A DNA stretch of 32,000 nt from Dickeya dadantii NCPPB 898 (GTDB lineage: Bacteria > Pseudomonadota > Gammaproteobacteria > Enterobacterales > Enterobacteriaceae), in assembly GCF_000406145.1 (NCBI RefSeq), contig NZ_CM001976.1, positions 4,579,545-4,611,544 of the forward strand. Direction: 5' to 3'. A model generated the notes under the pieces. The model made no database searches. It saw only the letters and a list, made by a program, of their open reading frames with translations, and was not told the DNA's origin. A program made the position numbers and the translations under genes. The stretch's first letter is position 1, and every line of letters begins with the position of its first letter. Positions 6,022-25,116 of this stretch are shown piece after piece.

Positions 6022-6028
6022 AAAAAAT

Positions 6029-7327: not shown

Positions 7328-7333
7328 GCCGCT

Positions 7334-7666
7334 ATGATACCCCCTGACGATACCCCGCCGCGCGATCCGGGCCTACAGCCGGAACGCACTCGGCTTGCCT
7401 GGTCGCGGACCGCATTTGTGCTGCTGGTCAACAGCGTACTGCTGTTGAAAGCCGGCTCGATGAAAAGCCAGCCACTGATGCTGGTCATCGGGCTGTTTCT
7501 GCTGCTGATGACGCTAGTCACCTATATCTGGTCGCGCCTGCGGTTGCGCGCCCTGCTGCGCAGCGGCTATCCCTGTACCCGGCAATCGATGTGGATGATG
7601 CGGCTGCTGATGCTGACGGTCATGGTGACCGCATTAAGCTTGCTGGTGGGTTTCATCAACGGTTAA
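7334..7666 (+). CDS. yidG: DUF202 inner-membrane protein, YidG-like
   Basis: 110 aa. DPGLQPERTRLAWSRTAF motif followed by hydrophobic segments. Starts 6 nt after the yidH-like stop. Confidence 0.75.
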   Translation: MIPPDDTPPRDPGLQPERTRLAWSRTAFVLLVNSVLLLKAGSMKSQPLMLVIGLFLLLMTLVTYIWSRLRLRALLRSGYPCTRQSMWMMRLLMLTVMVTALSLLVGFING

Positions 7667-7801
7667 ACACGATCGCCGCGCGTATTTTTCGTCAATACAG
7701 AAGATTTTGATCTGCCTGCCCCGACATAACCCGCCGCTATACCCTGCGGGCATTTGGAAACAGTAATTCTTAAATAACAATAAATTAAACCAACCTCACC
7801 C

Positions 7802-7831
7802 TATAACATCAGGTTATACCCTACCTATAAA
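7802..7831 (+). promoter_or_regulatory. Candidate promoter with an operator-like palindrome upstream of the dgcN-like operon
   Basis: Perfect 6-5-6 inverted repeat TATAAC-atcag-GTTATA (7802-7818). It overlaps ATAACA (7803-7808), a 17-nt spacer and TATAAA (7826-7831), inside a 250-bp AT-rich intergenic region. Confidence 0.3.
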
Positions 7832-7917
7832 CAAGCATTCGTCAGAAAAAAAGCATCGTGGAATAGTCTTAAACATCTTCTTTTATGTCATCACTACGCA
7901 ACTACGGATAAGACATC

Positions 7918-8925
7918 ATGCTGATCCCACAACCTTACCTGCTTTTTCTTGGCGACGTGACCGACCCGCTGGCGGTAAAAACGGCGCGCGGCATTCACAC
8001 CTGGCGCCCCGAACAGTGCGTAGGACAGCTGCGCCTGCCGGGCAGCACGGTGTCGCTGGGGCTCGATGATCTGGATATTCCGTCCGCCGTGGCGCGCGGC
8101 GCCAAAACGCTGGTGCTGGGCACCGCCAACGCCGGCGGTTTACTGCCGCCGCACTGGCTGGATACCGTGCGTGCCGCCATCGAAGCCGGTATGAACGTCG
8201 CCAACGGCCTGCATCAGCGCCTGATCGACGTCCCCGGCTTACAGGCACTGGCGGAGCAACATCAGGTACAGTTGTTCGATATTCGTCATATGCGCCCGGA
8301 GCTGACCGTCGGCAGCGGTAAGAAACGCAGCGGCAAACGCGTGCTGACCGTCGGCACCGACTGCTCGGTCGGCAAAATGTACACCTCGCTGGCGCTGGAA
8401 TCCGCCATGCGCGCACAGGGTCTGAAAGCCGATTTCCGCGCCACCGGACAGACCGGGGTGCTGGTCGCCGGCGATGGCATCGCCATTGACGCGGTGATCG
8501 CCGACTTCATCGCCGGCGCGGCGGAAGCGCTGTCACCCGCCAACGACGATGACCATTGGGATATCGTCGAAGGTCAGGGTTCGCTGTTTCATCCGTCCTA
8601 CGCCGGGGTGACCACCGGTCTTATCCACGGCGCACAGCCGCACTGGCTGGTGATGTGCCACGAAATGGGTCGTCCGCACATGCGTCACCTGCCCCATCAG
8701 CCGATGGTGGAACTGGGCGACTGCGTGGACGCCAACCTGCGCGCCGCCCGCGTCACCAACCCGGATGTACAGTTGGCCGGTTTCGCCATCAATACCTCCA
8801 ACTATGGTGAACAGGCAGCGCGCGATTACTGCCGCGAACTGAGCGAACGTTTTGGCGTGCCCGCCACCGACCCGATCCGCTTCGGTATCGATGACATTGC
8901 AACGCTGCTGAAAACCCGGGGGTAA
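7918..8925 (+). CDS. dgcN: DUF1611-family protein (D-glutamate N-acetyltransferase DgcN-like)
   Basis: 335 aa. The GTDCSVGKMYTSL P-loop-like motif and overall layout are as I recall for PF07755. It is paired with an enolase-superfamily epimerase 4 nt downstream, the DgcN/DgcA arrangement. Confidence 0.7.
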   Translation: MLIPQPYLLFLGDVTDPLAVKTARGIHTWRPEQCVGQLRLPGSTVSLGLDDLDIPSAVARGAKTLVLGTANAGGLLPPHWLDTVRAAIEAGMNVANGLHQRLIDVPGLQALAEQHQVQLFDIRHMRPELTVGSGKKRSGKRVLTVGTDCSVGKMYTSLALESAMRAQGLKADFRATGQTGVLVAGDGIAIDAVIADFIAGAAEALSPANDDDHWDIVEGQGSLFHPSYAGVTTGLIHGAQPHWLVMCHEMGRPHMRHLPHQPMVELGDCVDANLRAARVTNPDVQLAGFAINTSNYGEQAARDYCRELSERFGVPATDPIRFGIDDIATLLKTRG

Positions 8926-8929
8926 ACCC

Positions 8930-9895
8930 ATGCGACAAATGCAAATCGAAACCGTGGAACTGCCGCTGGCCCGTCCTTTCGCCATTTCCCGCGGTACCCG
9001 TACCGCCGTCACCGTGGTACGGGTGACGCTGGAAGAGCGCGGCTTTATCGGCCGGGGAGAATGCACCCCCACCGCCCACTATCAGGAAACCGCCGACAGC
9101 GTGACCCGCCAGTTGGAAACCGTGCGTCGGGTGGTAGAGAACGGCGTCGGTCTGGATGCGTTGCAGCAGCTGTTGCCGCCGGGATCGGCCCGCAACGCGC
9201 TGGACTGCGCCCTGTGGCGGCTGAACGCCGCGCTTGCCAGACAGACGCTGTGGCAGCACCTCGCCATCGCGCCGCCGCAGTCGATCATCACCGCCGAAAC
9301 CCTGAGTCTCGACAGCGTGGAAAACATGGCCAATGCCGCCAAAGACGCGGTTTCCCGCGGCGCACTGCTGCTGAAAATCAAGCTCGACCGGGAACAGATT
9401 CTGGAAAAGGTAGCGGCGATTCGCCAGTCCGCGCCCAACGTGACGCTGATTGTCGACGCCAACGAAGCCTGGAGCGGGCTGGAACTGGAGCCGCTGCTGC
9501 GCCAGTTGGCCGCGCATCGCATCGCGATGGTGGAACAACCGTTGCCCGCCGGGCAGGACAGCGCGCTGGCGACGTTTGAACACGCCATTCCGGTGTGCGC
9601 CGACGAAAGCTGTCATTACCGTGGCGACATTGCCGCCCTGCGCGACCGTTACGAGATGATCAATATCAAACTGGACAAGTGCGGCGGGCTGACCGAAGCG
9701 CTGGCGATGGTGGCCGAAGCGCGCCAGTACGACATGCGCATCATGGTGGGCTGCATGCTCGGCTCCTCGCTGGCGATGGAGGCCGCCATGCCGGCGGCGC
9801 TGGCCGCCGAACACGTGGATCTGGACGGCCCGATCTGGCTGGCGGCGGACAGCTCGCCGTACCTGACCTATAACCTCGGCCGCATCTGGCTGTGA
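8930..9895 (+). CDS. dgcA: Enolase-superfamily (MR/MLE) dipeptide epimerase / N-acetyl-D-Glu racemase DgcA-like
   Basis: 321 aa with the KxK (LLKIKLD), DANEAW, MVEQP, CADES and NIKLDKCGG catalytic and metal-ligand motifs of L-Ala-D/L-Glu epimerase-type enzymes. Confidence 0.75.
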   Translation: MRQMQIETVELPLARPFAISRGTRTAVTVVRVTLEERGFIGRGECTPTAHYQETADSVTRQLETVRRVVENGVGLDALQQLLPPGSARNALDCALWRLNAALARQTLWQHLAIAPPQSIITAETLSLDSVENMANAAKDAVSRGALLLKIKLDREQILEKVAAIRQSAPNVTLIVDANEAWSGLELEPLLRQLAAHRIAMVEQPLPAGQDSALATFEHAIPVCADESCHYRGDIAALRDRYEMINIKLDKCGGLTEALAMVAEARQYDMRIMVGCMLGSSLAMEAAMPAALAAEHVDLDGPIWLAADSSPYLTYNLGRIWL

Positions 9896-9915
9896 CAGAA
9901 CCTACCGGAGTGACG

Positions 9916-11814
9916 ATGACGGATACCACCTCAACCGCAATCCCTGCTGCGATCGCGTCCGACCCGGCGCCGCAACCGGTGCTGGAGATCGATGACCTGA
10001 GCGTTAGCTTCAGCGGCCGCTCCGGCACCCATCTGGCGCTCAAGGGCGTCTCTTTCAGCCTCAACAAAGGGGAAGTGGTAGCCGTGGTCGGCGAGAGCGG
10101 TTCCGGCAAGTCGGTCACCTCCCTGACGGTGATGGGGCTGCTGGCCGCGTCCGCCCGCATTGAACGCGGCGGCATCCGCTTTACCGATAACGCCGGCCGC
10201 CGCCACGACTTGCTGACCATGAAGGACGACGCCCGCCGTCGGCTGCGCGGCCGCGATATGGCGATGATCTTTCAGGAGCCGATGACCTCGCTCAACCCGG
10301 TGCTGAAAGTAGGCGACCAGCTCACCGAAGCGTTGCTGGACCACCAGATGTGCGACGCCGCCAGCGCCGACCGCAAGGCGCGCGAGCTGCTGCGTAAGGT
10401 GCGCATCGCCGACATCGACCGGGTGATGAACAGCTACCCGCACTCGCTGTCCGGCGGCATGCGCCAGCGGGTGATGATCGCTCAGGCGCTGGCGTGCGAC
10501 CCACAGTTGCTGATCGCCGACGAACCCACCACCGCGCTGGATGTGACGGTACAGGCGCGCATCCTGCAAATCCTGCGCGACCTGCAGCGCCAGAGCAACA
10601 TGTCGGTGCTGTTCATCACCCACGACATGGGCGTGGTGGCGGAAATCGCCGACCGCGTGGTGGTGATGTACCGTGGCGAGGTGGTGGAACACGGGACGGT
10701 GGACGCCATTTTCAACCGCCCGCAGCACGACTATACCAAAGCGCTGCTGGCGGCGGTGCCGCGATTGGGCGATATGCGCGACAGCGCCTGGCCTAAGCGC
10801 TTCCCGCTGCTGGGGCAGCAAAACGCCGCGCCCGAACAGGACCATACCACCGCGCGCTATGACGCGCCGCCGCTGCTCGACATCCGCGGCCTGAAAGTCT
10901 ATTACCCGATTCGCAGCGGCATTCTCTCCTCCGTCACCCACCGGGTCCATGCGGTGGAGCAGATCGATTTCGCCGTGTGGCCGGGCGAAACGCTGGCGAT
11001 TGTCGGCGAATCCGGCTGCGGCAAATCCACCACCGGGCGGGCTCTGCTGCGGCTGGTGGAAAGCCAGACCGACAGCCTGCTGTTCGACGGGCAGGAAATC
11101 GCCGGTCTGCGCGACCGCGACTTCCAGCCGCTGCGCCGCAAAATGCAGATGGTGTTTCAGGACCCGTACGCCTCGCTCAACCCGCGCCTGACCGTCGGTT
11201 TCACCATCGCCGAGCCACTGCTGCTGCACGGGTTGGTGAAATCGCTGGAAGACGCCACGCCGCAGGTGCAGGCGCTGCTGAAAAGCGTCGGCCTGCAACC
11301 GGAGCACGCTCAACGCTATCCGCACGAATTTTCCGGCGGCCAGCGCCAGCGTATCGCCATCGCCCGCGCCATGGCGCTGCAACCGCAGGTGATCATCGCC
11401 GACGAAGCGGTGTCGGCGCTGGACGTGTCGATTCAGGCGCAGGTGGTCAACCTGATGATGGATTTACAGCAGAAAACCGGCGTGTCGTGGATTTTCATCT
11501 CCCACGACATGGCGGTGGTGGAACGCATCGCCAACCGCGTGGCGGTGATGTACCTCGGTCAGATCGTGGAAATCGGCCCGCGTCAGTCGGTGTTCAACAA
11601 TCCGCAGCATCCGTATACCCAACGCCTGCTGGCCTCGGTGCCGATTGCCGACCCCAGCCGCCGCTATGCGCGCGAGCTGGACGACAGCGAAATCCCCTCG
11701 CCGCTGCGCAAGGCGAACGAGGTGGTGGAAAAAGCCCGTTACCGCGAAGTCGCCCCGCACCACTGGGTGAGCGAAGCCGGACTTGAGCCGTCTGCCAGTA
11801 GCAGTAAACCGTAG
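9916..11814 (+). CDS. gsiA: Fused double ATPase of a peptide/glutathione ABC importer (GsiA-like)
   Basis: Two Walker A sites ([16 protein letters not shown]) and two signatures (LSGGMRQR, FSGGQRQR), collinear with E. coli GsiA as I recall it. I prefer ATG 9916, which has GGAG 5 nt upstream. The track start at 9892 is a GTG overlapping the dgcA-like stop (GTGA). Confidence 0.88.
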   Translation: MTDTTSTAIPAAIASDPAPQPVLEIDDLSVSFSGRSGTHLALKGVSFSLNKGEVVAVVGESGSGKSVTSLTVMGLLAASARIERGGIRFTDNAGRRHDLLTMKDDARRRLRGRDMAMIFQEPMTSLNPVLKVGDQLTEALLDHQMCDAASADRKARELLRKVRIADIDRVMNSYPHSLSGGMRQRVMIAQALACDPQLLIADEPTTALDVTVQARILQILRDLQRQSNMSVLFITHDMGVVAEIADRVVVMYRGEVVEHGTVDAIFNRPQHDYTKALLAAVPRLGDMRDSAWPKRFPLLGQQNAAPEQDHTTARYDAPPLLDIRGLKVYYPIRSGILSSVTHRVHAVEQIDFAVWPGETLAIVGESGCGKSTTGRALLRLVESQTDSLLFDGQEIAGLRDRDFQPLRRKMQMVFQDPYASLNPRLTVGFTIAEPLLLHGLVKSLEDATPQVQALLKSVGLQPEHAQRYPHEFSGGQRQRIAIARAMALQPQVIIADEAVSALDVSIQAQVVNLMMDLQQKTGVSWIFISHDMAVVERIANRVAVMYLGQIVEIGPRQSVFNNPQHPYTQRLLASVPIADPSRRYARELDDSEIPSPLRKANEVVEKARYREVAPHHWVSEAGLEPSASSSKP

Positions 11815-11861
11815 TCAGTAGTGAACAGTAGTCAGTAGTGAACAGCAGTCAGTAGTGAACA
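11811..11861. repeat. 3 x 17-bp tandem repeat (gtagtcagtagtgaaca)
   Basis: Copies at 11811-11827, 11828-11844 (identical) and 11845-11861 (1 mismatch). The first copy contains the gsiA-like TAG stop codon. Confidence 0.95.
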
Positions 11862-12015
11862 ATAGTATCGTCCAACACCAGGGACACCCCACTGTCTGTG
11901 GGTTATCACCGCATCAGCAATGTACTGATAGCTGGAAAATTAAACAGTAATAAAAACAAACAATAATCGAAAGCAGCAACACAACCAGCAACACATACCA
12001 TTTACAGGAGACACC

Positions 12016-13572
12016 ATGAAATCGTTACTATCCACAGTAACTTCACGTCGTTCCGCCGTCGCTCTTGGGCTGTCATTGTGTCTGGCCGCTGCGGCTCAGG
12101 CGCAGGATCTGCGTATTTCCATGTATGCCGATATCACCGGGCTGGACCCGCACGACACCTCGGACACCCTGAGCTACTCCATCCAGAGCGGGATCTTCGA
12201 GCGCCTGTTCCAGTTCGACAACCAGATGAAACTGGTGCCGCGGCTGGCTACCGGCTACACCGGTAACGCCGACGCCACCGAATTCACCATCACCCTGCGC
12301 GAAGGCGTCACCTTCCAGGACGGCACGCCGTTCAACGCCGATGCGGTGAAAGCCAACCTTGACCGTCTGGCCGACCAGACCAAAGGGCTTAAACGCAACA
12401 GCCTGTTCAACATGATCAAAAGCGTGACGGTACTGTCGCCGACGCAGGTGAAGATCGAACTGAACAAATCCTTCGGCGCCTTCATCAACACGCTGGCGCA
12501 CCCGTCGGCGGTGATGCACAGCCCGGCGGCGCTGAAACAGTACCCGGACGAAACCCAGCTGCGCGTGCACCCGGTCGGCACCGGCCCGTTCAAGTTTTCC
12601 GAATGGCAGCAGGGTAAAGACGTCAAGCTGGTGAAATACGACAACTACTGGCAGAAAGGCTGGCCGAAAGTCGACAGCGTGACCTTCTACCCGTCGCCGG
12701 AAGACGCCACCCGCGTCGCGGCGCTGAAATCCGGCCAGTCCGACGCTATCTACCCGCTGCCGTCCGATCTGGTAAAAACCATTGAAGAAGACGCCAAGCT
12801 GGCGATCCAGCGCGACCCCAGCATCTATCTGTACTACATGGCGATCAACACCCAGCACGCGCCGCTGAACGACGTGCGTGTGCGCCAGGCGCTGAACTAC
12901 GCCATCAACCGCACCATCTGGCTGAAAGTCGGTTTTGCCGGCATGGGCCTGCCTGCCGCGTCCGCTATGGCGCCGCGCGTGCAGTTCTTCGCCAGCCAGA
13001 GCGAACCGAACTACACCTACAGCCCGGCCAAGGCCAAAGAACTGTTGAAAGAAGCCGGTTATGAGAACGGGCTGGAGCTGAAACTGTGGACCACCAACAC
13101 CACCGCCGCGGTGCGCAGTGCGCAGTTCTTCAAACAGCAACTGGAGCAGGTCGGCATCAAGGCGACCGTAACCCCGATGGATTCCGGCGCGCGCAACGAA
13201 AAACTGTGGGGCGTGAAAGACCCGAAACAGGCCGAGTTTGACCTGTACTACGGCGGCTGGTCGCCGTCCACCGGCGACGCCGACTGGGCGCTGCGTCCGC
13301 TGTTCGCCACCGAGTCCTGGGTGCCGAAAGCCTACAACGTCTCTTACTACAGCAACCCGGATGTGGACAAAGCCATCATGGCCGGTCTGGCGACCCCGGA
13401 TAACGACAAACGCGCCGCCGCTTACGCCGATGCCCAGAAGCTGATCTGGAAAGACGCGCCGGTGGTATTCCTGGGCGTACCGGACAACCTGGTGGGCAAA
13501 GTGAAAAATCTGTCCGGCGTTTACATGCTGGCTGACGGTTCGCTGATCTTCGATCAGGCTGAGTTCAAGTAA
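12016..13572 (+). CDS. gsiB: Periplasmic peptide/glutathione-binding protein (GsiB-like, family 5 SBP)
   Basis: 518 aa. Sec signal MKSLL...CLAAAAQAQ. FQDGTPFNADAVKANLDR, HPVGTGPFKF, RQALNYAINR and GWSPSTGDADWALRPLF parallel E. coli GsiB. AGGAG Shine-Dalgarno. Confidence 0.88.
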   Translation: MKSLLSTVTSRRSAVALGLSLCLAAAAQAQDLRISMYADITGLDPHDTSDTLSYSIQSGIFERLFQFDNQMKLVPRLATGYTGNADATEFTITLREGVTFQDGTPFNADAVKANLDRLADQTKGLKRNSLFNMIKSVTVLSPTQVKIELNKSFGAFINTLAHPSAVMHSPAALKQYPDETQLRVHPVGTGPFKFSEWQQGKDVKLVKYDNYWQKGWPKVDSVTFYPSPEDATRVAALKSGQSDAIYPLPSDLVKTIEEDAKLAIQRDPSIYLYYMAINTQHAPLNDVRVRQALNYAINRTIWLKVGFAGMGLPAASAMAPRVQFFASQSEPNYTYSPAKAKELLKEAGYENGLELKLWTTNTTAAVRSAQFFKQQLEQVGIKATVTPMDSGARNEKLWGVKDPKQAEFDLYYGGWSPSTGDADWALRPLFATESWVPKAYNVSYYSNPDVDKAIMAGLATPDNDKRAAAYADAQKLIWKDAPVVFLGVPDNLVGKVKNLSGVYMLADGSLIFDQAEFK

Positions 13573-13589
13573 TCACACAGGGGATCGCC

Positions 13590-14510
13590 ATGTTTGCTTA
13601 TATCGTCCGACGTTTGCTGGAAATGATCCCGGTTTTGCTGGTGATCTCCCTGTTGGTGTTCGGTTTTATCAAGCTGTTACCGGGTGACCCGGCGCGGATC
13701 TACGCCGGCCCCGACGCCCCCATCGAGGCGGTGGAAGCCGCCCGTGAGCGTCTGGGGTTGAACGATCCGCTGCCGCAGCAATACCTCAACTGGCTGGACG
13801 GGTTGGTGCACGGTGATCTCGGCATCACCTACCGCACCCAGCAGCCGGTGCTGACCGTCATCCAGAAAAGTTTTATGCCGACGTTGTGGCTGGCGCTGGC
13901 CGGCTTCGCCTGGTCGGTGCTGCTCGGCCTGCTGATCGGCGTGTTTGCCGCGCTCAAACGCGGTAAATGGCAGGACTGGTCGCTGATGAGTCTGGCGGTT
14001 GGCGGCATCTCGATGCCGCCGTTCTGGCTCGGCCTGCTGCTGATCCAGTTCGTCGCCATGCCGTTCGGCATTTTTTCGGTCAGCGGTTACAACAAACCGG
14101 CCGACATTATTCTGCCCGCGCTGACGCTGGGCGCCTCGGTGGCCGCCGTGATGGCGCGCTTTACCCGCTCCGCCTTTCTGGAAGTGATGCAGGAAGATTA
14201 TGTGCGCACCGCCCGCGCCAAAGGGCTGCGCCAGCGGCTAATCGTCTGGAAACACGTGATGCGCAACGCGCTGATTCCGGTGATCACCATGCTCGGGTTG
14301 CAGTTCGGTTTTCTGCTGGGCGGCTCGATTGTGGTGGAAAGCGTGTTCAACTGGCCGGGGCTTGGCTGGTTGTTGATCGAATCCATTAAAACGCAGGATC
14401 AACCGGTGATTCAGGCGCTGGTGATGCTGTTCGTGTTTGAATTTATCCTGATTAACCTGCTGGTCGACCTGCTGTACGCGGTGGTGAACCCGGCCATTCG
14501 TCTGCGTTAG
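13590..14510 (+). CDS. gsiC: ABC importer permease (GsiC-like)
   Basis: 306 aa. LPGDPAR, MARFTRSAFLEVMQEDYVRTARAKGL, VFNWPGLG. Confidence 0.88.
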   Translation: MFAYIVRRLLEMIPVLLVISLLVFGFIKLLPGDPARIYAGPDAPIEAVEAARERLGLNDPLPQQYLNWLDGLVHGDLGITYRTQQPVLTVIQKSFMPTLWLALAGFAWSVLLGLLIGVFAALKRGKWQDWSLMSLAVGGISMPPFWLGLLLIQFVAMPFGIFSVSGYNKPADIILPALTLGASVAAVMARFTRSAFLEVMQEDYVRTARAKGLRQRLIVWKHVMRNALIPVITMLGLQFGFLLGGSIVVESVFNWPGLGWLLIESIKTQDQPVIQALVMLFVFEFILINLLVDLLYAVVNPAIRLR

Positions 14511-14518
14511 GAGCTGCG

Positions 14519-15421
14519 ATGAACACTTCTCAAGAGCCGACCGCGGCGACCCCATCCGCCCTGAACGACAGCGCAATTCGTTCACCGTGGCGCGATTTTC
14601 TGCATGCGTTCATCCGCAACCCGATGGCGCTGGCCTCCGGCGGTTTCGTGCTGCTGCTGGTGCTGATAGCAGTGTTCGCTCCCTGGCTGGCCCCCTGGAG
14701 CCCGATGGAGCCTGACTGGATGGCGCTCGGCGCAGCGCCTTCCGCCGACCACTGGATGGGCACCGACGATCTGGGCCGCGACGTGATGAGCCGCATTATT
14801 TACGGCGCACGCATTTCGCTCTACATCGGCATCGTCTCAGTCTCGCTCGGTATGCTGGCGGGCATCGCCCTCGGTTTGCTGGCAGGCTATTATGGCCGCA
14901 GCATCGACATGCTGATCATGCGCGGCTGCGACGTATTGTTCGCGTTTCCCGGCATGCTGCTGGCGATCGCGGTGGTGGCGATCCTCGGCCCCGGCCTCAA
15001 TAACGTGATTATCGCGGTGGCGGTATTCAGCGTGCCGGTGTTCGCCCGCATCGTGCGCGCCTCCACGCTGTCGCTCAAACAGGCCGCCTACGTCGAAGCG
15101 GTGCGCTGCGCCGGCGCGCCGGACCGGGTGATTCTGCTGCGTCATATTCTGCCGGGCACCCTGTCGAACGTGATTGTGTATTTCACCATGCGTATCGGCA
15201 CCAGTATCCTGACCGCCGCCGGCCTGAGTTTCATCGGTCTGGGACCGGAGCCGGACGTGCCGGAATGGGGCAACATTCTGGCGATGAGCCGCAGCATGAT
15301 GATGGCAGGGCAATGGCACGTCAGCGTGTTCCCCGGTCTGGCTATCTTCTGCACCGTGCTGGCGTTCAACCTGCTGGGCGACGCGCTGCGCGACACGCTG
15401 GACCCGAAACTGAAAAGTTAA
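14519..15421 (+). CDS. gsiD: ABC importer permease (GsiD-like)
   Basis: 300 aa. GTDDLGRDVMSRIIYGARISL, CDVLFAFPGMLLAIAVVAILG, LRHILPGT, LGDALRDTLDPKLK. AGGAG Shine-Dalgarno. Confidence 0.88.
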   Translation: MNTSQEPTAATPSALNDSAIRSPWRDFLHAFIRNPMALASGGFVLLLVLIAVFAPWLAPWSPMEPDWMALGAAPSADHWMGTDDLGRDVMSRIIYGARISLYIGIVSVSLGMLAGIALGLLAGYYGRSIDMLIMRGCDVLFAFPGMLLAIAVVAILGPGLNNVIIAVAVFSVPVFARIVRASTLSLKQAAYVEAVRCAGAPDRVILLRHILPGTLSNVIVYFTMRIGTSILTAAGLSFIGLGPEPDVPEWGNILAMSRSMMMAGQWHVSVFPGLAIFCTVLAFNLLGDALRDTLDPKLKS

Positions 15422-15432
15422 GCGAAGACACC

Positions 15433-16491
15433 ATGACTCCTTATCAACAGGCGCGGCTGGCGCCGCTGCTGCAACGCTGGCGCACCGAACGCCTGCTCGG
15501 CATGCCGCGCCTGCCTTGCGGCCCGCACAATCGCCTGAGCGACGTGCCCGGCGTGCGGGTCGGCCACCATACGCTGGCCAACGGCGAGATTCAGACCGGC
15601 GTCACCGCCATCGTGCCGCCCGGCGATAACCTGTTTACACAACCGTTGCCCTGCGGCGCGGCGGTGCTTAACGGCTTCGCCAAACCGGTGGGGCTGGTGC
15701 AAATTGAAGAGCTGGGACGCTTGCAGACGCCTGTCCTGCTCAGTAATACCCTGTCGATCGGCACATTGTTTACCACGCTGGTGCGCGACGCCATTGGCCG
15801 CAACCCGGAACTGGGGCGCAGTTTGCCGACCGTCAACCCGCTGGCGCTGGAGTGCAACGACGGCTGGCTCAACGATATTCAGGCGCTGGCGGTAACCGAT
15901 GCGATGGCGCGCGCGGCGCTGGACAACGCCACGGCGGATTTTGCCCGCGGCAGCGTCGGCGCCGGGCGCGGCATGAGCTGCTTTGCGCTCAAAGGCGGCA
16001 TCGGCACCGCTTCCCGGCTGATTCCGGAACTGAACGCCACCCTCGGCGTACTGGTGCTGGCCAATTTCGGCGCCCTTCCCGCCCTGACGCTGGACGGCGT
16101 GCAGGTCGGCGAGGCGATTGCGCCGCTGCTGCCGGAACTGGCGCCCCAACGTGACGCCGGCTCCATCATCATCATCATGGCCATCGACGCCGCGCTGGAT
16201 GCCCGCCAGCTCACCCGTATCGCTCGCCGCGCCGGCGCTGGGCTTGGGCGGCTCGGCAGCTACTGGGGGCACGGGTCCGGCGATATCGCGGTGGCCTTTT
16301 CCACCCAGCCGACGCCCCAGCCGCCGGAAGACGCACAGCTGGAACCGCTGCTCAACGCGGCGGCCGACGCCACCGAACACGCGGTGCTGGATGCGTTGTT
16401 GCAGGCCGAGGCCGTCACCGGTTTTCGCGGCCACCATCGCCCGGCCCTGACGCAGGTGCTGGACCGTCTGGCACAGGATTTTCCCGCATAA
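15433..16491 (+). CDS. P1 (S58, DmpA/BapA-type) Ntn aminopeptidase family protein
   Basis: 352 aa from ATG 15433. GVRVGHHT, KGGIGTAS, and a probable self-processing Gly|Ser site in DAG|SIIIIMAIDAAL. The track start at 15265 lies inside gsiD and is rejected. Confidence 0.75.
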   Translation: MTPYQQARLAPLLQRWRTERLLGMPRLPCGPHNRLSDVPGVRVGHHTLANGEIQTGVTAIVPPGDNLFTQPLPCGAAVLNGFAKPVGLVQIEELGRLQTPVLLSNTLSIGTLFTTLVRDAIGRNPELGRSLPTVNPLALECNDGWLNDIQALAVTDAMARAALDNATADFARGSVGAGRGMSCFALKGGIGTASRLIPELNATLGVLVLANFGALPALTLDGVQVGEAIAPLLPELAPQRDAGSIIIIMAIDAALDARQLTRIARRAGAGLGRLGSYWGHGSGDIAVAFSTQPTPQPPEDAQLEPLLNAAADATEHAVLDALLQAEAVTGFRGHHRPALTQVLDRLAQDFPA

Positions 16492-16523
16492 CCGCCTGAT
16501 GAACAGGCGATAAGGACGCTGAC

Positions 16524-17345
16524 ATGAAAGTATTTATTTCTGCGGATATCGAAGGCATCGCTGGCGTGATGCGCCCGGAACAGTGCAGCCCCGGCACGCC
16601 GGAATACCAGTTAGCCCGCGGGCTGATGGAGCAGGAAGTGAACGCCGCAATTGAAGGCGCGTTCGCCGGCGGCGCTAGCGAAGTGGTGGTGGCCGACAGC
16701 CACGCCGCCATGACCAACCTGCGCGCTGAAAATATCGACCCGCGCGCCCGGCTGGTACAGGGCAAACCGCGCGGTCTGTCGATGGTGGAAGGCTTGCAAC
16801 AGCAGCAGTTCGATGGCCTGATGTTCATCGGCTACCACAGCGCCGCCGGAGAACACGGCGTGCTGGCGCACACCATCAACGGCCGGGCGTTTTACCGGGT
16901 ACGCATCAACGGCGAAGTGATGGGCGAAAGCGATATCTACGCCGCCGCCGGCGCCGAGCTGAACACCCCGCTATGGCTGGTGAGCGGTGACGACACGCTG
17001 CAAAGCTGGATCAACCGCTACTACCCGGCCGCCCACTACGCCTGCGTGAAACGCGCCATTTCCCAGACCGCGGCGGAATCGCTGAGCCCCGAAGCGGCGC
17101 GCAACGCCATCCGGCTGGCGGCGACTCAGGCGGTGCAACAGGCGCATAAAGAGACGACTACCCGTTTGCAACCACCGTATAAACTGGAGCTGATGGTCGC
17201 CAAACCGGTACTGGCGGACCTGTTCTGCCTGATTCCGGGCGTCGTTCGCCAAGACGCCATCACCGTGGGCTACCAATCCCCGACCATCGCGCCGATCGTC
17301 AGCCTGCTGGGCGCATTTTCCTATCTGGCGACCACGCAGAATTAA
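16524..17345 (+). CDS. M55-family D-aminopeptidase (Bacillus DppA-type)
   Basis: 273 aa. MKVFISADIEGIAGV...EVVVADSHAAMTNL parallels B. subtilis DppA (MKLYMSVDMEGISG...VNDSH) as I recall it. Confidence 0.75.
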   Translation: MKVFISADIEGIAGVMRPEQCSPGTPEYQLARGLMEQEVNAAIEGAFAGGASEVVVADSHAAMTNLRAENIDPRARLVQGKPRGLSMVEGLQQQQFDGLMFIGYHSAAGEHGVLAHTINGRAFYRVRINGEVMGESDIYAAAGAELNTPLWLVSGDDTLQSWINRYYPAAHYACVKRAISQTAAESLSPEAARNAIRLAATQAVQQAHKETTTRLQPPYKLELMVAKPVLADLFCLIPGVVRQDAITVGYQSPTIAPIVSLLGAFSYLATTQN

Positions 17346-17375
17346 GCGCCTCGAACATAAGGAAGCACATCCAAG

Positions 17376-18335
17376 ATGAAACCGGTCATTGTGATTCATG
17401 GCGGCGCGGGCGCGCTCAGTCGCACGGCGATGGACAGCGAGAAAGAACAGCGCTATCGCGCCGCGTTGCAGAGCATCGTCGCCCGCGGGCAGGAAATCCT
17501 GGCCGCCAACGGCAGCGCGCTGGATGCGGTCACCGAGGCGGTGCGCCTGCTGGAAGAGTGCCCGCTGTTCAATGCGGGCAAAGGGGCGGTGTTTACCCAC
17601 CGCGGCACCCACGAACTGGACGCCAGCATCATGGACGGCCGTTCGCTGGAAGCGGGCGCCATCGCCGGTGTTAACCACATCCGCAACCCGATTCTGGCGG
17701 CCCGCGCGGTACTGGAGCGCAGCCCACACGTGATGTTTACGGCGGAAGGCGCTGAAACGTTCGCCCGCGAGCAGGGGCTGGAGATGGTCGAACCGGACTT
17801 TTTCTCCACCGACGAGCGCTACCAGCAGTTGCTGAAAGCGCAGACGGGCGACGGCAAGATCCTGCTGGATCACGATGGCGAACGTCAGGCGCAAGGCGCC
17901 GATCCGCTCGATCCGGATCGCAAGTTCGGTACCGTTGGCGCAGTAGCGCTGGACGCAGCCGGTAATCTGGCGGCGGCGACCTCCACCGGCGGCATGACCA
18001 ACAAACGCGCCGGACGCGTCGGCGACTCGCCGATCATCGGCGCAGGCTGTTACGCCAACAACCGCACCGTCGCCGTCTCCTGCACCGGCACCGGCGAGGT
18101 GTTCATGCGCACCGTCGCGGCGTACGACGTTTCGGCGTTGATGGAATACGGTAACCTGCCGCTGTCGCAAGCCGCCGATAACGTCGTCATGGAAAAAGTG
18201 CTGGCGCTGGGCGGCAGCGGCGGGCTAATCGCCGTTGACCATCAGGGCAATATCGCACTGCCGTTCAACAGCGAAGGCATGTACCGCGGCTATGGTTACG
18301 TCGGCGAAGACGCGGTCGTGGGGATTTATCGGTAA
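17376..18335 (+). CDS. iaaA: Isoaspartyl peptidase / L-asparaginase (Ntn hydrolase)
   Basis: 319 aa. HGGAGA, autoproteolytic Gly|Thr in KFG|TVGAVALD, TSTGGMTNK, GDSPIIGAG; collinear with E. coli IaaA. Confidence 0.9.
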   Translation: MKPVIVIHGGAGALSRTAMDSEKEQRYRAALQSIVARGQEILAANGSALDAVTEAVRLLEECPLFNAGKGAVFTHRGTHELDASIMDGRSLEAGAIAGVNHIRNPILAARAVLERSPHVMFTAEGAETFAREQGLEMVEPDFFSTDERYQQLLKAQTGDGKILLDHDGERQAQGADPLDPDRKFGTVGAVALDAAGNLAAATSTGGMTNKRAGRVGDSPIIGAGCYANNRTVAVSCTGTGEVFMRTVAAYDVSALMEYGNLPLSQAADNVVMEKVLALGGSGGLIAVDHQGNIALPFNSEGMYRGYGYVGEDAVVGIYR

Positions 18336-18411
18336 AATGATCCCCGCTGTACCTGCACGTTAGTCAGGTTATATTCCACACGATTCATCTTTACTGGTGG
18401 ATAGTGGTCAA

Positions 18412-18451
18412 AATGGCGAACCCGGACCTTGCACCGGATTCGCCATTTTTA
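18412..18451 (+). terminator. Rho-independent terminator ending the nine-gene operon
   Basis: AATGGCGAACCCGG-accttgca-CCGGATTCGCCATT (14-bp stem, 1 mismatch) followed by TTTTT. Confidence 0.75.
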
Positions 18452-18657
18452 TCCGTCAGTACCTCAGTTTTACTCCAGGCACCAGCCACTCACGTTTTGT
18501 AATAACGATAACCAACCGGGCAGCAGACGATAGCAGCGATCCAGCTCGCAACAAATGATTAAGTCCACAATATGTAACATGTTGTTACTATGATTAAATG
18601 AATAATTAAAATACAATTCCTTCTAATGTATGTTATTACGGTAAGTAAAGGTCAGAC

Positions 18658-20130: not shown

Positions 20131-21642
20131 TCACCCGCGCTGATAGCGCACTACCCGGCTGCGGTTCAGCAGCAGCGTCAGATAGCCGTCTTGCACCCGC
20201 AGCGAGAAGCGTTTCTCCCACGGGCCGTCCTGCACCGTGGCGAGCGCGCGGCCGTTGCCGAGCGATTGCAGAGAGCCGGCGATCGCCGCCGGGCCAAGCC
20301 CCATCACGATACGATCGCCGTCAATCACCAGTTCGCTGCGGGTGTCCGGCCAGTGCCAGCGGCCTTGCAACTGCATCACGCTGTTGTCAGCCTCCACCGG
20401 TAGGAACCGGCATGGCGCGTGACCGATTTCCCCTTCGATCGCCATACCGTTCTGCCTAAGCTTCATCGGCAGATGACTGGATAACGACACCGCCACGCCC
20501 GGCTCATCGCTGCGGTACAGGGTTTCGGTCGCGCCCAGCCAGCAGGCACCCAGACCTTTCACCTCCAGCCAGTGGCCGCCGTGCTCCGCCGCGTACAGCC
20601 CCGGCGTCAGATCATGCCCGCGCGCCGGCAGCGGCTGGTCCAGCAAGGCGGACATCACCCGCAGCGCGCTGTCGTAAGTGGCGACATCTTCCCGGTTGGC
20701 GACCAGCGCCACCCCGACCTGCAATACCGGATCAAGCAGGAAGTAGCTCTTATAACCCGCGTGCGAACCGCCGTGCCCCACCAGCAGCGCGTCGCCGAGG
20801 CGGCTGTGCGCCACGCCCAGCCCGTAACCGGTGACGCGACCGTCGCGCAGGTAACGCGGCTGGGACAGACGCGCCAGCACGCCTTCGCCCGGCCCCTGAT
20901 TGATCAGCAGCGATTGCAGCCAGACCGTCAGATCGCGCACGCTGCCGGTGACGCAGCCGGAGGTGGACAGATGCAGCCCGGCGCAGGACAACTGCCAGCC
21001 CTGCGGCGATGGCCAATAGCCCGGCACCAGTCCGGGCACGATATCAAACCAGGTTTCCGGCGCGCTGAGCGCGATCCCCAGCGGTTGGTTGACGTGCTGG
21101 CGCAGCAGGTCGGCGAAATAGATACCTTTGGCTTTCAGCGCTTCTTCCACCAGCCGGTAACCGGTATTGGTGTAGGAGATCTCGCTGCCCGCCGGGTAGT
21201 TCAGGTCGCCGTTGTCCGCCAGAAACGCCAGCAGGCTGTCGGCCGAGGTGGCGTTGTACACCGACAACCCCAGCAGCGACAGACTTTCGCGCACGTCCGG
21301 CAGGCCGGAAGTCATGTCCAGCGCCTGCCCGACCGTCACCTTGCCGTTTTCACCGGTCAACTGCGGCAGGTGTTGATCGAGACGGTCGGTCAACGCCAGC
21401 GCATGGCTGGCGGCTCCCGTTACCTGTGAAGCGAACAGATGTTTGGTCACCGAGGCGAAACGCACCACGCTCTGGGTGGTGAATGGGGTATTCTGCGCCA
21501 AATCCGCCAGCCCGCCGCAGCAGGCGGCACGGATCTGTTCGCCGTCGAACAATGTAATGGCGCCACCCGGCTCGCCGGGCTGATTCCAGGATTGCGCGAT
21601 CGCGCGCGCCTCATCAATGGCGCGCTGCCAGTGCAATGTCAT
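20131..21642 (-). CDS. S12 serine hydrolase, D-stereospecific aminopeptidase (Ochrobactrum DAP)-like
   Basis: 503 aa. SxxK (SVTKH), YxN (YTNTGY) and GHGG motifs, plus about 170 aa of C-terminal extension as in DAP. No signal peptide. The ATG overlaps the upstream ATPase stop (ATGA). Confidence 0.7.
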   Translation of the reverse strand: MTLHWQRAIDEARAIAQSWNQPGEPGGAITLFDGEQIRAACCGGLADLAQNTPFTTQSVVRFASVTKHLFASQVTGAASHALALTDRLDQHLPQLTGENGKVTVGQALDMTSGLPDVRESLSLLGLSVYNATSADSLLAFLADNGDLNYPAGSEISYTNTGYRLVEEALKAKGIYFADLLRQHVNQPLGIALSAPETWFDIVPGLVPGYWPSPQGWQLSCAGLHLSTSGCVTGSVRDLTVWLQSLLINQGPGEGVLARLSQPRYLRDGRVTGYGLGVAHSRLGDALLVGHGGSHAGYKSYFLLDPVLQVGVALVANREDVATYDSALRVMSALLDQPLPARGHDLTPGLYAAEHGGHWLEVKGLGACWLGATETLYRSDEPGVAVSLSSHLPMKLRQNGMAIEGEIGHAPCRFLPVEADNSVMQLQGRWHWPDTRSELVIDGDRIVMGLGPAAIAGSLQSLGNGRALATVQDGPWEKRFSLRVQDGYLTLLLNRSRVVRYQRG

Positions 21643-22379
21643 GCCGGTTCCTCCAGCGTCATACTTAAATCGTACAGTTCCGCGGTGTGTGGATGATGCA
21701 GATTACGCGCGCGCAAATGCTCCACGCTGAGCTGCTCCACCATTTCGCCATGCTGCATCACGCCGACGCGCTGGCACAGATGGGATACCACCGCCAGATT
21801 GTGGCTGACCATGATATAGGTGAGCCTACGCTCCTGGCGCAGATCTGTCAGCAGGTTGAGGATTTCCGCCTGCACCGACACATCCAGCGCCGAGGTCGGT
21901 TCATCCAGCAGCAGCACTTCCGGCTCGGCGATCAGCGCGCGGGCAATCGCCACCCGCTGGCGCTGGCCGCCGGAGAGCTGATGGGGAAAACGAAAGCGCG
22001 CCGCGGCGGGCAAGCCGACTTCCTCCAGCGCACGGGTAATGCGCTGTTCGGCGCGATCGAAGCGGTGCACCAGCAGCGGTTCATGCAAAATACGATCGAT
22101 GGTCTGGCGCGGATGCAGCGATCCGTACGGGTCCTGAAACACCATCTGCACCTGGCGGAAAAAACTGCGATCCCGCCGCGGCAGCTGTGCCATGCCGCCA
22201 AACTCGATTCGACCCCGCCACTGGGTATTCAACCCGGCCAGCGCGCGCAAAATGGTGGACTTGCCGGAGCCGCTTTCGCCCACCATGCCGAAGCTGTCGC
22301 CGCTCTCCAGCGCGAAGGACACCCCTTTCACCACCTCGACGCCGCCAAAGGCGATGCGCAGGTTTTCAACGTTAATCAT
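21639..22379 (-). CDS. ABC peptide importer ATPase (DdpF/DppF-like)
   Basis: 246 aa. Walker A GESGSGKS, signature LSGGQRQR, Walker [12 protein letters not shown]. Confidence 0.9.
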   Translation of the reverse strand: MINVENLRIAFGGVEVVKGVSFALESGDSFGMVGESGSGKSTILRALAGLNTQWRGRIEFGGMAQLPRRDRSFFRQVQMVFQDPYGSLHPRQTIDRILHEPLLVHRFDRAEQRITRALEEVGLPAAARFRFPHQLSGGQRQRVAIARALIAEPEVLLLDEPTSALDVSVQAEILNLLTDLRQERRLTYIMVSHNLAVVSHLCQRVGVMQHGEMVEQLSVEHLRARNLHHPHTAELYDLSMTLEEPA

Positions 22380-23206
22380 CAGGTTCTCCAGGATGGATCG
22401 CGCTGCAACACCGGCAGCCGATCGCGCGGGTGTCTCAGCGACGGCAGGCAGGCCAGCAGCCCTTGCGTATACGGATGTTGCGCCTGTAGCAGCTCGCTAG
22501 CCTGCAGCATTTCGACGATGCGCCCGGCGTACATCACCGCCACCCGATCGCAGAAATGCGACACCAGCGGCAGATCGTGACTGATCAGGATCAACCCCAT
22601 GCCGCGCTGCGATACCAGATCGTCGATCAGGCACAGGATCTCCGCCTGCACGGTGGCGTCCAGCGCCGAGGTCGGCTCATCGGCAATCAGCAGTTCCGGG
22701 TCGGGCGCCAGCATCATGGCGATCATCACCCGCTGCCCCATGCCGCCCGACACTTCATGCGGATAACATTTCGCCACCCGCTGCGGGTCGCGAATGCGTA
22801 CCTGATTCAGCAGATCGATGGCGGCGTCCATCGCCGCACGGCGGCTGCCGCTTTTGTGCTCGCGCCAGGCTTCCGCCACCTGCTGGCCGATGGTCATCAC
22901 CGGGTTCAGCGAATATTTCGGGTCCTGCAGGATAAAGCCGACCCGCTTGCCGCGAATCTGCCGCAGCGTCTTTTCACTGGCGCCGCGCAGGTCGATGCCG
23001 TCAAAACTCAGTTTGTCGGCCTGAACGCGGGCGCTGCCCGGCAGCAGTTGCATCAGGCTGCGGGCGGTCAGAGACTTGCCGGAGCCGCTTTCGCCGACAA
23101 TGGCAAACTTCTCTTTGCCGACGCTGAAGCTGACGCCGCGCACCGCCTCAAACGTTTCCGTCCGGCTGGCGAACGCGATACGGAGGTTTTCAATTTCCAC
23201 CAACAT
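22379..23206 (-). CDS. ABC peptide importer ATPase (DdpD/DppD-like)
   Basis: 275 aa. [27 protein letters not shown]. Its TGA shares one base with the next ATG (TGATG). Confidence 0.9.
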
Positions 23207-24109
23207 TTAACGCTCCTTCGGGTCCAGCAAATCGCGCAGGCCGTCACCAAGAAAGTTGAAGGCCAGCGAGGTGAGGAAAATGGCGATGCAGGGCACCAGC
23301 GGCACCCACCAGGCGTTGAACAGGAAACGACGCGCGGTGGCGATCATGGTGCCCCATTCCGGCGACGGCGGCTGCGCGCCCATGCCGAGAAAGCCAAGGC
23401 TGGCGGCGGTGATGATGATGGAGCTCATATCCAGCGTCACCCGCACAATCAGGCTCGGCACGCACAGTGGCATGATGTGGCGCAGAATGATGCGCAGCGG
23501 CGCGGCGCCGGTCAGGCGGCAGGCGGCGATGAAATCGGTGTGGCGAAACTGTAACGTCTCCGCCCGCGCCAGCCGCGCATACGGCGGCCAGGCGGTCAGC
23601 GCGATCGCCAAAATGGCGCTTTCCACCCCCGGTTTCAGCGCCGCGACAAACGCCAGCGCCAGCACCAGCCGCGGAAACGCCAGAAAGATATCGGTCAGCC
23701 GCATCAGGACTTTGTCGAGAATGCCGCCGGCGTAACCGGCGATGCAGCCGACCAGCAGGCCGAGCGGCGCGGTCAGCGCCACCACCGCGATAACCATGCC
23801 CAACGTGGTGCGGCCGCCGTACAAAATACGGCTGAACACATCGCGCCCCAGTTCATCCGTGCCTAGCCAGTGCCCGGCGGACGGCGCCGCCAGCCGGTTG
23901 GATAGATTCTGAAAACCGGGGTCGTACGACGTCAGCCAGGGCGCGGCCAGCGATAACAGCAACACGGCCACGATGATAAACAGCCCCAGCATCGCCAGCG
24001 GATTAGTGCGAAACCCCAGCCACAGGCGGTAGCGCTGCCCCCACACCGCTTGACGGCGCGTGGTAGGCGTTTCGTCGAGCAACCAGGCTCGTGAGACATA
24101 AAAACTCAT
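23207..24109 (-). CDS. ABC peptide importer permease (DdpC/DppC-like)
   Basis: 300 aa. GTDELGRDVFSRILYGGR, multiple TM segments, LGDGLRDLLDPK tail. Its stop abuts the next ATG with no gap. Confidence 0.9.
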   Translation of the reverse strand: MSFYVSRAWLLDETPTTRRQAVWGQRYRLWLGFRTNPLAMLGLFIIVAVLLLSLAAPWLTSYDPGFQNLSNRLAAPSAGHWLGTDELGRDVFSRILYGGRTTLGMVIAVVALTAPLGLLVGCIAGYAGGILDKVLMRLTDIFLAFPRLVLALAFVAALKPGVESAILAIALTAWPPYARLARAETLQFRHTDFIAACRLTGAAPLRIILRHIMPLCVPSLIVRVTLDMSSIIITAASLGFLGMGAQPPSPEWGTMIATARRFLFNAWWVPLVPCIAIFLTSLAFNFLGDGLRDLLDPKER

Positions 24110-25116
24110 GTTACGCGGGGATCCAAAAGTCGATAGAAAATATCAGCCAGCAGGTTCAGCAGCACATAGACCGCACCCACCAGCAACGTGGCGCCCACCA
24201 CCGGGTTCATGTCCGCGTTGAGCAGCGCGGTGGTGAGGTACTGACCCAGCCCCGGCCAGGAGAAGACGTTTTCCGTCACCACCGCTCCTTCCAGCAGCCC
24301 GGCGTAGGTCAGCGCCAGCACGGTGACCAGTTGCACCGCCACCGTGGGAAACGCGTGCCGCCAGATCACCCGGCGCGACGATAACCCCTTGGCGCGGGCG
24401 GTGATCACGAACTCGCCGCTGAGTGCGTTGAGCATGAAGGTGCGGGTCATACGGGTGATGTAGGCCATGCTGAAATACGCCAGAATCAGCACCGGCTGCA
24501 CCATGTGCGCCAGCGCGTCGCGCAGGGCGTCATAGTCGCCGGCCAGCAGCGAGTCCACCGTCAACAACCCGGTGACGTGCGGCACCATGTCCTGAAAGAT
24601 GATGTCCTGTCGCCCCGGCCCCGGCGCGATGCCCAGCACCGCGTAAAAAATCAGCAGGCTGAGCAGCGCCAGCACAAACACCGGCAGCGAATGACCCGCC
24701 AGACAGATGACGCGAATCACCTGATCCACCCAGCGCCCTTGCCGCACCGCCGCCCATACCCCGAGCGGAATGCCGACCAGCGCCGCGACGACGATCGCGG
24801 CGGTCGCCAGTTCCAGCGTGGCGGGGAAGTAGCGGGCGATGTCGGTGGTCACCGGATTGGAGGTCAACACCGAGCGCCCCAAATCGCCGTGCAGCAGTTG
24901 ATTCAGGTAGTGGCCGTACTGCATCCACAGGGGCTGATCCAGCCCCATTTCCTGACGTACCCGCTCCACCACCGCCTGGGGCGCGTTGTCCCCGACGGCG
25001 GCGAGTACCGGGTCGGTCGGCATAATACGGCCGATGAAGAAAGTCAGTACCGATAACCCCAACAGGGTCAACAACAGGCTGCCGAGCGTACTGCAAAAAC
25101 GGATCAGTATCTGCAT
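24106..25116 (-). CDS. ABC peptide importer permease (DdpB/DppB-like)
   Basis: 336 aa. EFVITARAKGLS, VFSWPGLG. ATGA overlap with the next gene. Confidence 0.9.
   Translation of the reverse strand: MQILIRFCSTLGSLLLTLLGLSVLTFFIGRIMPTDPVLAAVGDNAPQAVVERVRQEMGLDQPLWMQYGHYLNQLLHGDLGRSVLTSNPVTTDIARYFPATLELATAAIVVAALVGIPLGVWAAVRQGRWVDQVIRVICLAGHSLPVFVLALLSLLIFYAVLGIAPGPGRQDIIFQDMVPHVTGLLTVDSLLAGDYDALRDALAHMVQPVLILAYFSMAYITRMTRTFMLNALSGEFVITARAKGLSSRRVIWRHAFPTVAVQLVTVLALTYAGLLEGAVVTENVFSWPGLGQYLTTALLNADMNPVVGATLLVGAVYVLLNLLADIFYRLLDPRVT

Follow-up and report, generated by a model that had tools for sequence, protein, structure and literature searches.

We identify, in a 32,000-nucleotide stretch of the Dickeya dadantii NCPPB 898 genome (contig NZ_CM001976.1, positions 4,579,545 to 4,611,544; hereafter the window), an operon of nine co-oriented plus-strand open reading frames (ORFs; 7918-18335) that joins a DgcN-DgcA pair to a Gsi-like ATP-binding cassette (ABC) importer and three peptidases of the S58, M55 and IaaA families. 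We propose, with a probability of about 0.6, that this is an inducible operon for the use of peptides carrying D- or iso-linked residues, whose breakdown would characteristically end in D-glutamate. The proposal builds on gene content, catalytic motifs, gene order, a promoter box, the mobility of the block, and the replacement of its head pair in other lineages by a D-amino-acid aminotransferase. The block is real, conserved, mobile, and built from known parts.

Gene order, conservation and mobility of the block

Protein families were assigned by Pfam and NCBIfam profile searches of the window proteins, with frames taken from the ORF list, and conservation was followed in the 80 best species-representative loci found with a DgcN query. 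All nine families listed in an initial annotation of this DNA were matched (Table 1). The order DgcN-DgcA-GsiA-GsiB-GsiC-GsiD-S58-M55 is colinear in 59 of the 80 loci, from Dickeya, Lonsdalea, Pantoea, Erwinia, Winslowiella, Tatumella, Rouxiella, Rahnella, Agarivorans, and Celerinatantimonas. IaaA stands ninth in 8 of these 59 (Dickeya, Lonsdalea, Agarivorans, and Celerinatantimonas), and the full nine-gene order is found beyond Dickeya in Halotalea, Agarivorans, and Celerinatantimonas, with Halotalea alkalilenta reading LysR-DgcN-DgcA-GsiABCD-S58-M55-IaaA. The closest loci are those of Dickeya undicola (98%) and D. oryzae (96%), and the M55 protein is 97% identical to a D. dianthicola protein. 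The initial annotation had described a nine-gene unit, an order that is indeed conserved across genera; the recurrent unit, however, is eight genes plus a LysR regulator, with IaaA present only in some lineages. The block it had delimited at 7918-18451 stands, but the regulator (28122-29030) and an M19 dipeptidase gene (26911-27993) fall outside those boundaries. Full-text literature searches returned no description of the combination as a unit, in line with the initial annotation, which was aware of none, and the literature searched mentions DUF1611 twice, both times as an incidental table entry.

The block also travels on mobile DNA. Twenty Klebsiella and three Enterobacter plasmid records matched an S58 protein query; the one inspected, Klebsiella pneumoniae IncFIB plasmid L081, carries the eight genes and the LysR gene, with IS5 inserted in gsiC. 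Five of 5426 complete Escherichia coli genomes contain the block, and the gsiC-gsiD query used there also matched the native gsi region in 5426 of 5426. In the one E. coli chromosome inspected (AH04, L095), the block lies in an island flanked by insertion sequences next to mrk fimbrial genes. A tautomerase-family gene precedes the block in both L081 and L095, IS5, IS1, and Tn3 elements flank it, and the Klebsiella copy is near pco copper-resistance genes.

Within the window, the longest frames have the coordinates given in Table 1 except those of gsiA (9892-11814) and the S58 gene (15265-16491), whose true starts are likely the ATG codons at 9916 and 15433. With these starts the intergenic gaps measure 4, 20, 201, 17, 8, 11, 32, and 30 nt, which bears out the earlier description of gaps of 4-32 nt with a single 201-nt spacer. 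The AT-rich leader (7667-7917) contains 40.6% GC against 63.3% across the operon. The strong terminator expected at 18412-18451 is visible as a hairpin followed by a T run and forms the main stem of the 18336-18470 fold (z -3.99, with 0 of 200 shuffles folding as well); a simple terminator scan missed this hairpin, presumably on account of a long loop. The 201-nt gsiA-gsiB spacer (11815-12015) contains a tandem repeat that starts in the final gsiA codons, and it appears to be long and repeat-bearing only in Dickeya, where the repeats vary by species and the 3' part of the spacer is kept. D. oryzae has another repeat (CGTTATTGACCGTAAGA-like) at the same position. Neither a significant fold nor a terminator-like structure was found in the 201-nt spacer (z -0.47).

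Table 1. Coordinates, strand and supporting matches of the operon, its control elements and associated genes in the window
Feature	Coordinates	Strand	Basis or remark
Second, degenerate LysR-type box ATAACCCGCCGCTAT	7726..7740	+	One mismatch to ATAAC-N5-GTTAT
LysR-type recognition box, perfect palindrome ATAACATCAGGTTAT	7803..7817	+	115 nt before dgcN ATG
AAACAAGCATTCGTCA element, putative activation site	7829..7844	+	Overlaps -35-like TCGTCA (7839-7844); unique in window
Extended -10-like TGgAATAGT	7859..7867	+	17 nt after -35-like hexamer; putative promoter role
dgcN, D-glutamate N-acetyltransferase homologue (DUF1611)	7918..8925	+	NCBIfam DgcN, PF07755 + PF17396
dgcA/ycjG-type enolase-superfamily N-acyl-D-Glu racemase or epimerase	8930..9895	+	MR_MLE_N/C; DgcA + YcjG models
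gsiA-like fused double ABC ATPase	9916..11814 (open from GTG 9892)	+	Two ABC_tran + oligo_HPY
17-nt tandem repeat AGTGAACAGTAGTCAGT, 3.8 copies	11803..11866	+	Tandem repeat score 100
gsiB-like family-5 periplasmic binding protein, signal peptide	12016..13572	+	SBP_bac_5
gsiC-like permease	13590..14510	+	BPD_transp_1
gsiD-like permease	14519..15421	+	OppC_N + BPD_transp_1
S58/P1 (DmpA-type) self-processing aminopeptidase, cytoplasmic (predicted)	15433..16491	+	PF03576, E 5e-101
M55 (DppA-type) D-aminopeptidase, cytoplasmic (predicted)	16524..17345	+	PF04951, E 6.5e-95
iaaA-like isoaspartyl (beta-aspartyl) peptidase, Ntn hydrolase	17376..18335	+	PF01112 (Asparaginase_2), E 1e-119
Intrinsic terminator hairpin, then T run	18412..18451	+	Seen in sequence; fold
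Convergent Dpp/Ddp-like peptide ABC operon + S12 beta-lactamase-fold peptidase	20131..26711	-	Profile matches
M19 dipeptidase	26911..27993	+	PF01244
LysR-family regulator, probable dgcN-promoter activator	28122..29030 (open from GTG 28044)	+	HTH_1 + LysR_substrate

Enzymes, importer and promoter

At the head of the operon, the DgcN protein clears the NCBIfam equivalog NF041892 (525.2 bits against a cutoff of 480) and aligns over its full length (residues 3-327) to PDB 7XRJ (E 9e-107). Its DgcA partner passes two models, DgcA (430.6 against 400) and YcjG PRK15129 (361 against 343), has E. coli YcjG (1JPD) as its best PDB match, and retains the catalytic K-x-K, D/E/D, K, and DxD motifs. DgcA is paired with DgcN at all loci examined but two (L047 and L052). 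A DgcN-DgcA pathway of D-glutamate catabolism was reportedly described in 2023 in Pseudoalteromonas sp. CF6-2, and that pathway is said to include a regulator, DgcR. The curated DgcA and YcjG models of NCBIfam overlap, so automatic names for the second enzyme are unreliable; in a Klebsiella plasmid record its gene is labeled ycjG and the encoded product DgcA.

The three peptidases retain the features of their families. The S58 protein has a GHG|SGD motif whose serine aligns with DmpA (1B65) and 2DRH at the autocleavage site, and no signal peptide was found in it. The M55 protein aligns to Bacillus subtilis DppA (1HI9) and keeps D8, E10, H60, H104, and E133, which we take to be the metal ligands of DppA. 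The IaaA-like protein matches E. coli EcAIII over its full length (E 2e-130), scores 496 on the IaaA model against a cutoff of 567, and has the nucleophile site G|T186 aligned with the start of the EcAIII beta subunit. The operon enzymes look active and cytoplasmic. Among the operon products only the binding protein has an N-terminal signal peptide (as does the binding protein of a second, neighboring operon), and the peptidases would therefore act after import. On a metagenome contig (L093), an M55 gene directly follows an L,D-transpeptidase gene (YkuD and PG_binding_1), a neighborhood that is a further hint of a cell-wall connection for the M55 family.

GsiA, GsiB, GsiC, and GsiD are the best NCBIfam models for the four importer components, yet each component stays under its equivalog cutoff (819/1077, 497/594, 401/463, and 398/484, respectively), and the closest PDB match of the gsiB-like protein is E. 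coli YliB/GsiB (1UQW). Given that block-carrying E. coli keep their native gsi genes, the importer is a paralogue of gsi rather than an orthologue, and not the glutathione importer; the sub-cutoff scores of all four components are consistent with this status. An orthologous glutathione importer was rejected as a candidate on the same two grounds.

The importer and peptidases recur elsewhere with other partners. Burkholderia arboris has RpiR-IaaA-GsiABCD-S58-M55 without DgcN-DgcA; Paracoccus yeei has P1, RpiR, GsiABCD, M55, and IaaA; and Rhodovastum has GsiABCD-M55-IaaA. In Azospirillum lipoferum, which carries RpiR, a D-amino-acid aminotransferase, GsiABCD, P1, M55, and an isoaspartyl peptidase, the aminotransferase occupies the DgcN-DgcA position. 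The Pelagivirga set GsiABCD-S58-IaaA ends in a class IV aminotransferase (D-amino-acid aminotransferase fold), with LysR-M55 divergent from it, and in Shinella and Sinorhizobium a D-amino-acid transaminase adjoins P1, Shinella also having M55 and an S12 D-aminopeptidase there. Two unrelated converters of free D-amino acids thus accompany the same importer-peptidase set, and this is the strongest indication at hand that D-amino acids are set free from the imported peptides.

Regions upstream of dgcN were aligned by eye across loci, and a footprint of three elements was read from the alignment: ATA[AG]C-N5-G[CT]TAT; then, 26 nt on, AAACAAG[CT]ATTCG; then [G/A]TGAAATAGT. In 60 of the 80 loci the first element occupies a fixed position ahead of dgcN; it is also present in Halotalea and on the Klebsiella plasmid. 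Within the window, ATAAC-N5-GTTAT is matched perfectly only at 7803-7817 (0.33 matches expected by chance), and a sequence like the degenerate box at 7726-7740 also occurs in the two other Dickeya loci. AAACAAG[CT]ATT is found 26 nt past the box in nearly all Enterobacterales loci, and the -10 region G/ATGAAATAGT is kept across genera. The layout is that usual for a LysR-activated promoter, with a T-N11-A inverted repeat ~65 nt before the predicted start and a second site overlapping the -35-like element.

Orthologues of the window's LysR protein (gene start likely ATG 28122), at 56-73% identity, adjoin the operon or a bare DgcN-DgcA pair in many genera. The orthologue directly follows M55 or IaaA in Pantoea, Tatumella, Rouxiella, Rahnella, Agarivorans, Klebsiella, and E. 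coli, and lies just upstream of dgcN in L047, Psychromonas, and Halotalea. Loci consisting of LysR and DgcN-DgcA only, with the same box, occur in Psychromonas (L066) and Alteromonas (L073 and L074), the Alteromonas LysR match being only 36% identical. From this recurrent adjacency and the shared box, we infer that the LysR regulator controls the whole operon and answers to D-glutamate metabolism, and that inserted genes displaced lysR by ~10 kb from the operon in Dickeya.

Proposed function and its alternatives

We propose that the LysR-type activator (~28122-29030) would bind the box at 7803-7817 and switch on a single promoter upstream of dgcN, with D-Glu or N-acetyl-D-Glu as the probable inducer. 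The Gsi-like ABC importer would bring small peptides from the periplasm into the cytoplasm, where the peptidases would trim bonds that ordinary peptidases handle poorly: S58 would take off N-terminal L-, D-, or beta-aminoacyl residues, M55 would take off N-terminal D-residues, IaaA would cut beta-aspartyl bonds, and the nearby M19 enzyme would cut L-Xaa-D-Xaa dipeptides. DgcN would then acetylate the freed D-Glu and DgcA would racemize N-acetyl-D-Glu to N-acetyl-L-Glu, which could enter arginine synthesis or be deacetylated to L-Glu. Co-transcription and the pairing of regulator and box are inferred, as are the inducer, all of the substrates, and what becomes of N-acetyl-L-Glu.

The initial annotation had suggested an import-and-dismantle route for D-Glu or gamma/beta-linked peptides. 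Its core, a unit for D-amino-acid peptides, is supported by the conserved order, the mobility, the LysR-type promoter, and the exchanged head. Substrates of the gamma-linked, poly-gamma-glutamate, or glutathione-like kind are unsupported, since no cutter of gamma-D-Glu bonds (MpaA, YkfC, or GGT type) was found among the island proteins. That absence weighs against our proposal too, as do four further points. No N-acetyl-L-Glu deacetylase was found among the proteins of the island. A sigma-70 scan of 7000-19000 gave no site, a result that is uninformative for an activator-dependent promoter and that speaks neither for nor against an internal promoter in the 201-nt spacer. The link of DgcN-DgcA to peptide genes is lineage-specific: Pfam found no recurrent peptide genes among 128 ORFs neighboring the pair at more distant loci, such as those of Alteromonas, Pelagibius, and Kiloniella, so that DgcN-DgcA is a two-gene module that became joined to a peptide module. 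Lastly, DgcA is inseparable from YcjG by model score, tree, or motifs. The E. coli YcjG sequence of 1JPD, an L-Ala-D/L-Glu epimerase, scores 422.8 on the DgcA model (cutoff 400), has 45-51% identity to every DgcN-linked enzyme, falls between the two clades of these enzymes in the tree, and shares with them every active-site motif, DxD included. The sole discriminator of DgcA from YcjG is adjacency to DgcN.

This last similarity gives substance to murein-peptide salvage as an alternative function. The dgcA product might serve mainly to turn imported L-Ala-D-Glu into L-Ala-L-Glu, the activity proposed for YcjG of E. coli and YkfB of B. subtilis, with DgcN having a secondary or different role. 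The Dickeya enzyme passes the YcjG cutoff and has YcjG as its closest solved homologue, and the reciprocal score, tree position, and motifs of E. coli YcjG agree with such an assignment. We nevertheless consider it unlikely given the near-constant pairing with DgcN (at all loci examined except L047 and L052) and the replacement of the pair elsewhere by a D-amino-acid aminotransferase, whose substrates are free D-amino acids and not dipeptides. Epimerization would also be compatible with our proposal if the enzyme accepts both N-acyl-D-Glu substrates, and DgcA may indeed take N-acetyl-D-Glu and L-Ala-D-Glu alike. It is similarly improbable that the operon salvages aged or damaged peptides (isoaspartyl peptides, D-Asp peptides, or beta-Asp dipeptides) in place of cell-wall peptides, with DgcN and DgcA general for D-acidic residues. 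IaaA-type enzymes are promiscuous isoaspartyl dipeptidases, and IaaA belongs to the wider Gsi-S58-M55-IaaA set of alpha-, beta-, and gamma-proteobacteria; it is missing, however, from most Enterobacterales copies of the operon, so that the core function can do without it. A cyanophycinase is lacking as well, and a cyanophycin-scavenging locus was rejected on that ground.

Two readings would deny the operon its unity, and both seem to us very improbable. One sees an ordinary glutathione importer operon (gsiABCD plus iaaA) lying by chance beside unrelated genes. GsiA-D and IaaA score highest among the named models, E. coli YliB/GsiB is the nearest binding protein of solved structure, and the genome annotation calls the binding protein glutathione-binding; against these names stand the sub-equivalog scores of all four Gsi components and IaaA, the native iaaA-gsiABCD retained by block-carrying E. 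coli, and the order, shared promoter box, and co-mobility that tie the importer to dgcNA, S58, and M55. The other divides the genes into several independent transcription units without functional link, for example through an internal promoter in the 201-nt spacer, which could hold one and whose 3' part is kept among Dickeya species. The same junction is apparently short in other genera (judged with extrapolated gsiB starts), the spacer has no terminator-like structure, the order is kept across genera, and the block moves as one piece. An operon for peptides with D- or iso-linked residues accordingly remains our preferred interpretation.

Genomic setting, known systems and significance

The Dickeya gene order runs coaBC, pyrE, rph, two DUF202 genes, the operon, a sulfotransferase-like gene, a convergent ABC operon, M19, LysR, yicC, and an IS3-type transposase. 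The two DUF202 genes, encoding membrane proteins, lie in the left flank (5277-7666), and the IS3-family transposase follows yicC in the right flank (29076-31277). As rph and yicC are neighbors in E. coli, ~22 kb looks inserted between rph-pyrE and yicC. GC content is 0.63 in both operons and in the M19 gene, against 0.57-0.58 in the flanks, and in Lonsdalea the operon occupies the same rph site. The gene at 18658-19977, between the terminator and the convergent operon, is AT-rich (52% GC), has a weak Sulfotransferase_2 match and no NCBIfam hit, and looks like a separate insertion.

The convergent operon encodes two permeases, two ATPases, a binding protein whose signal (RRRFLAG) is Tat-like, and a 503-residue S12 protein whose only PDB match is the Ochrobactrum anthropi D-aminopeptidase 1EI5. 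Its permease at 23207-24109 scores best on the D,D-dipeptide (Ddp) permease model, under the cutoff (302/434), and an S12 homologue lies convergent directly after M55 in 13 loci. The second operon possibly belongs to the same functional set. A box search of the window found no LysR box in the intergenic region between its binding-protein gene (SBP2) and M19, leaving regulator sharing by the second operon without support. In Rahnella (L054, L059, and L060), a Dpp-like transporter with 40-53% identity to the second operon lies upstream of dgcN on the same strand, and in L054 an OmpC/F-type porin gene stands between that transporter and dgcN.

The M19 gene directly precedes the LysR gene in the window, and Erwinia typographi (L037) has the order DgcN-DgcA-S58-M19-LysR; the dipeptidase is probably part of the same functional set. 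Its product is a full-length close match to PDB 3LY0/3FDG (E 6e-121), which we take to be Rhodobacter sphaeroides Rsp0802. The best substrate of Rsp0802, in work of 2010, was reportedly L-Met-D-Glu; if so, the M19 enzyme would release D-Glu from L-Xaa-D-Glu dipeptides.

Several known systems share parts of this organization. Like the DgcN-DgcA pathway, the Dickeya operon has a DUF1611 acetyltransferase and an adjacent putative enolase-superfamily racemase, both above NCBIfam cutoffs; the conserved transcription factor that neighbors dgcN may be a counterpart of DgcR. Unlike in that pathway, the pair here heads an operon with a peptide importer and three peptidases, neighbors that distant pairs lack, and it is carried by plant-associated and clinical Enterobacterales, not by marine bacteria or haloarchaea. 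The five protein families of E. coli iaaA-gsiABCD, among them the fused double ATPase, the family-5 binding protein, and two permeases, all recur in the Dickeya operon, with IaaA a close match and GsiB a clear homologue. The native E. coli order iaaA-gsiA-gsiB-gsiC-gsiD was verified as the initial annotation had given it; iaaA comes first there and last in Dickeya, all Dickeya components are sub-equivalog, and the Dickeya-type block, which adds S58, M55, and DgcN/DgcA, is found alongside the native gsi genes in five E. coli genomes. Seen beside the Burkholderia arboris arrangement, the E. coli operon resembles a shortened version of a larger set.

The B. subtilis operon dppA-dppBCDE-ykfABCD, reportedly proposed in 2000 and 2001 to serve the use of cell-wall peptides, likewise combines an M55 D-aminopeptidase, a Dpp-type peptide importer, and an enolase-superfamily L-Ala-D/L-Glu epimerase. 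The Dickeya operon differs from it in adding DgcN, S58, IaaA, and predicted LysR-type control, and neither the YkfA-type LD-carboxypeptidase nor the YkfC-type gamma-D-Glu endopeptidase family was found among the island proteins. E. coli ddpXABCDF, a D-Ala-D-Ala dipeptidase with its importer, also joins a peptide ABC importer to an enzyme for D-residue peptides, but with other peptidase families and without a D-Glu conversion step. The Dickeya operon therefore resembles dpp-ykf in logic and shares families with iaaA-gsiABCD while being a member of neither.

A wider interpretation, which we advance tentatively and at less than even odds, is that the operon is one form of a widespread modular system for abnormal-peptide salvage, in which a Gsi-S58-M55-IaaA core is combined with interchangeable converters (DgcN/DgcA with LysR, or an aminotransferase with RpiR or LysR). 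If this is true, E. coli iaaA-gsiABCD would be a reduced relative of the system, the natural substrates of the Gsi family, DmpA-type S58, and DppA-type M55 proteins would be peptides with D- or iso-residues from cell walls or aged proteins, and YcjG and DgcA would be one enzyme type acting on N-acyl-D-Glu.

For the organisms that carry the operon, the proposed function would extend the D-glutamate route of 2023 from marine microbes to the plant pathogens Dickeya, Lonsdalea, Pantoea, and Erwinia, and to the mobile DNA of Klebsiella, Enterobacter, and E. coli. It would give testable physiological roles to S58, M55, and M19 peptidases, whose natural substrates are poorly known, and a regulatory handle in the form of a defined regulator and a defined box. 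Collectively, our analysis suggests that the role of the Gsi importer family is not confined to glutathione.

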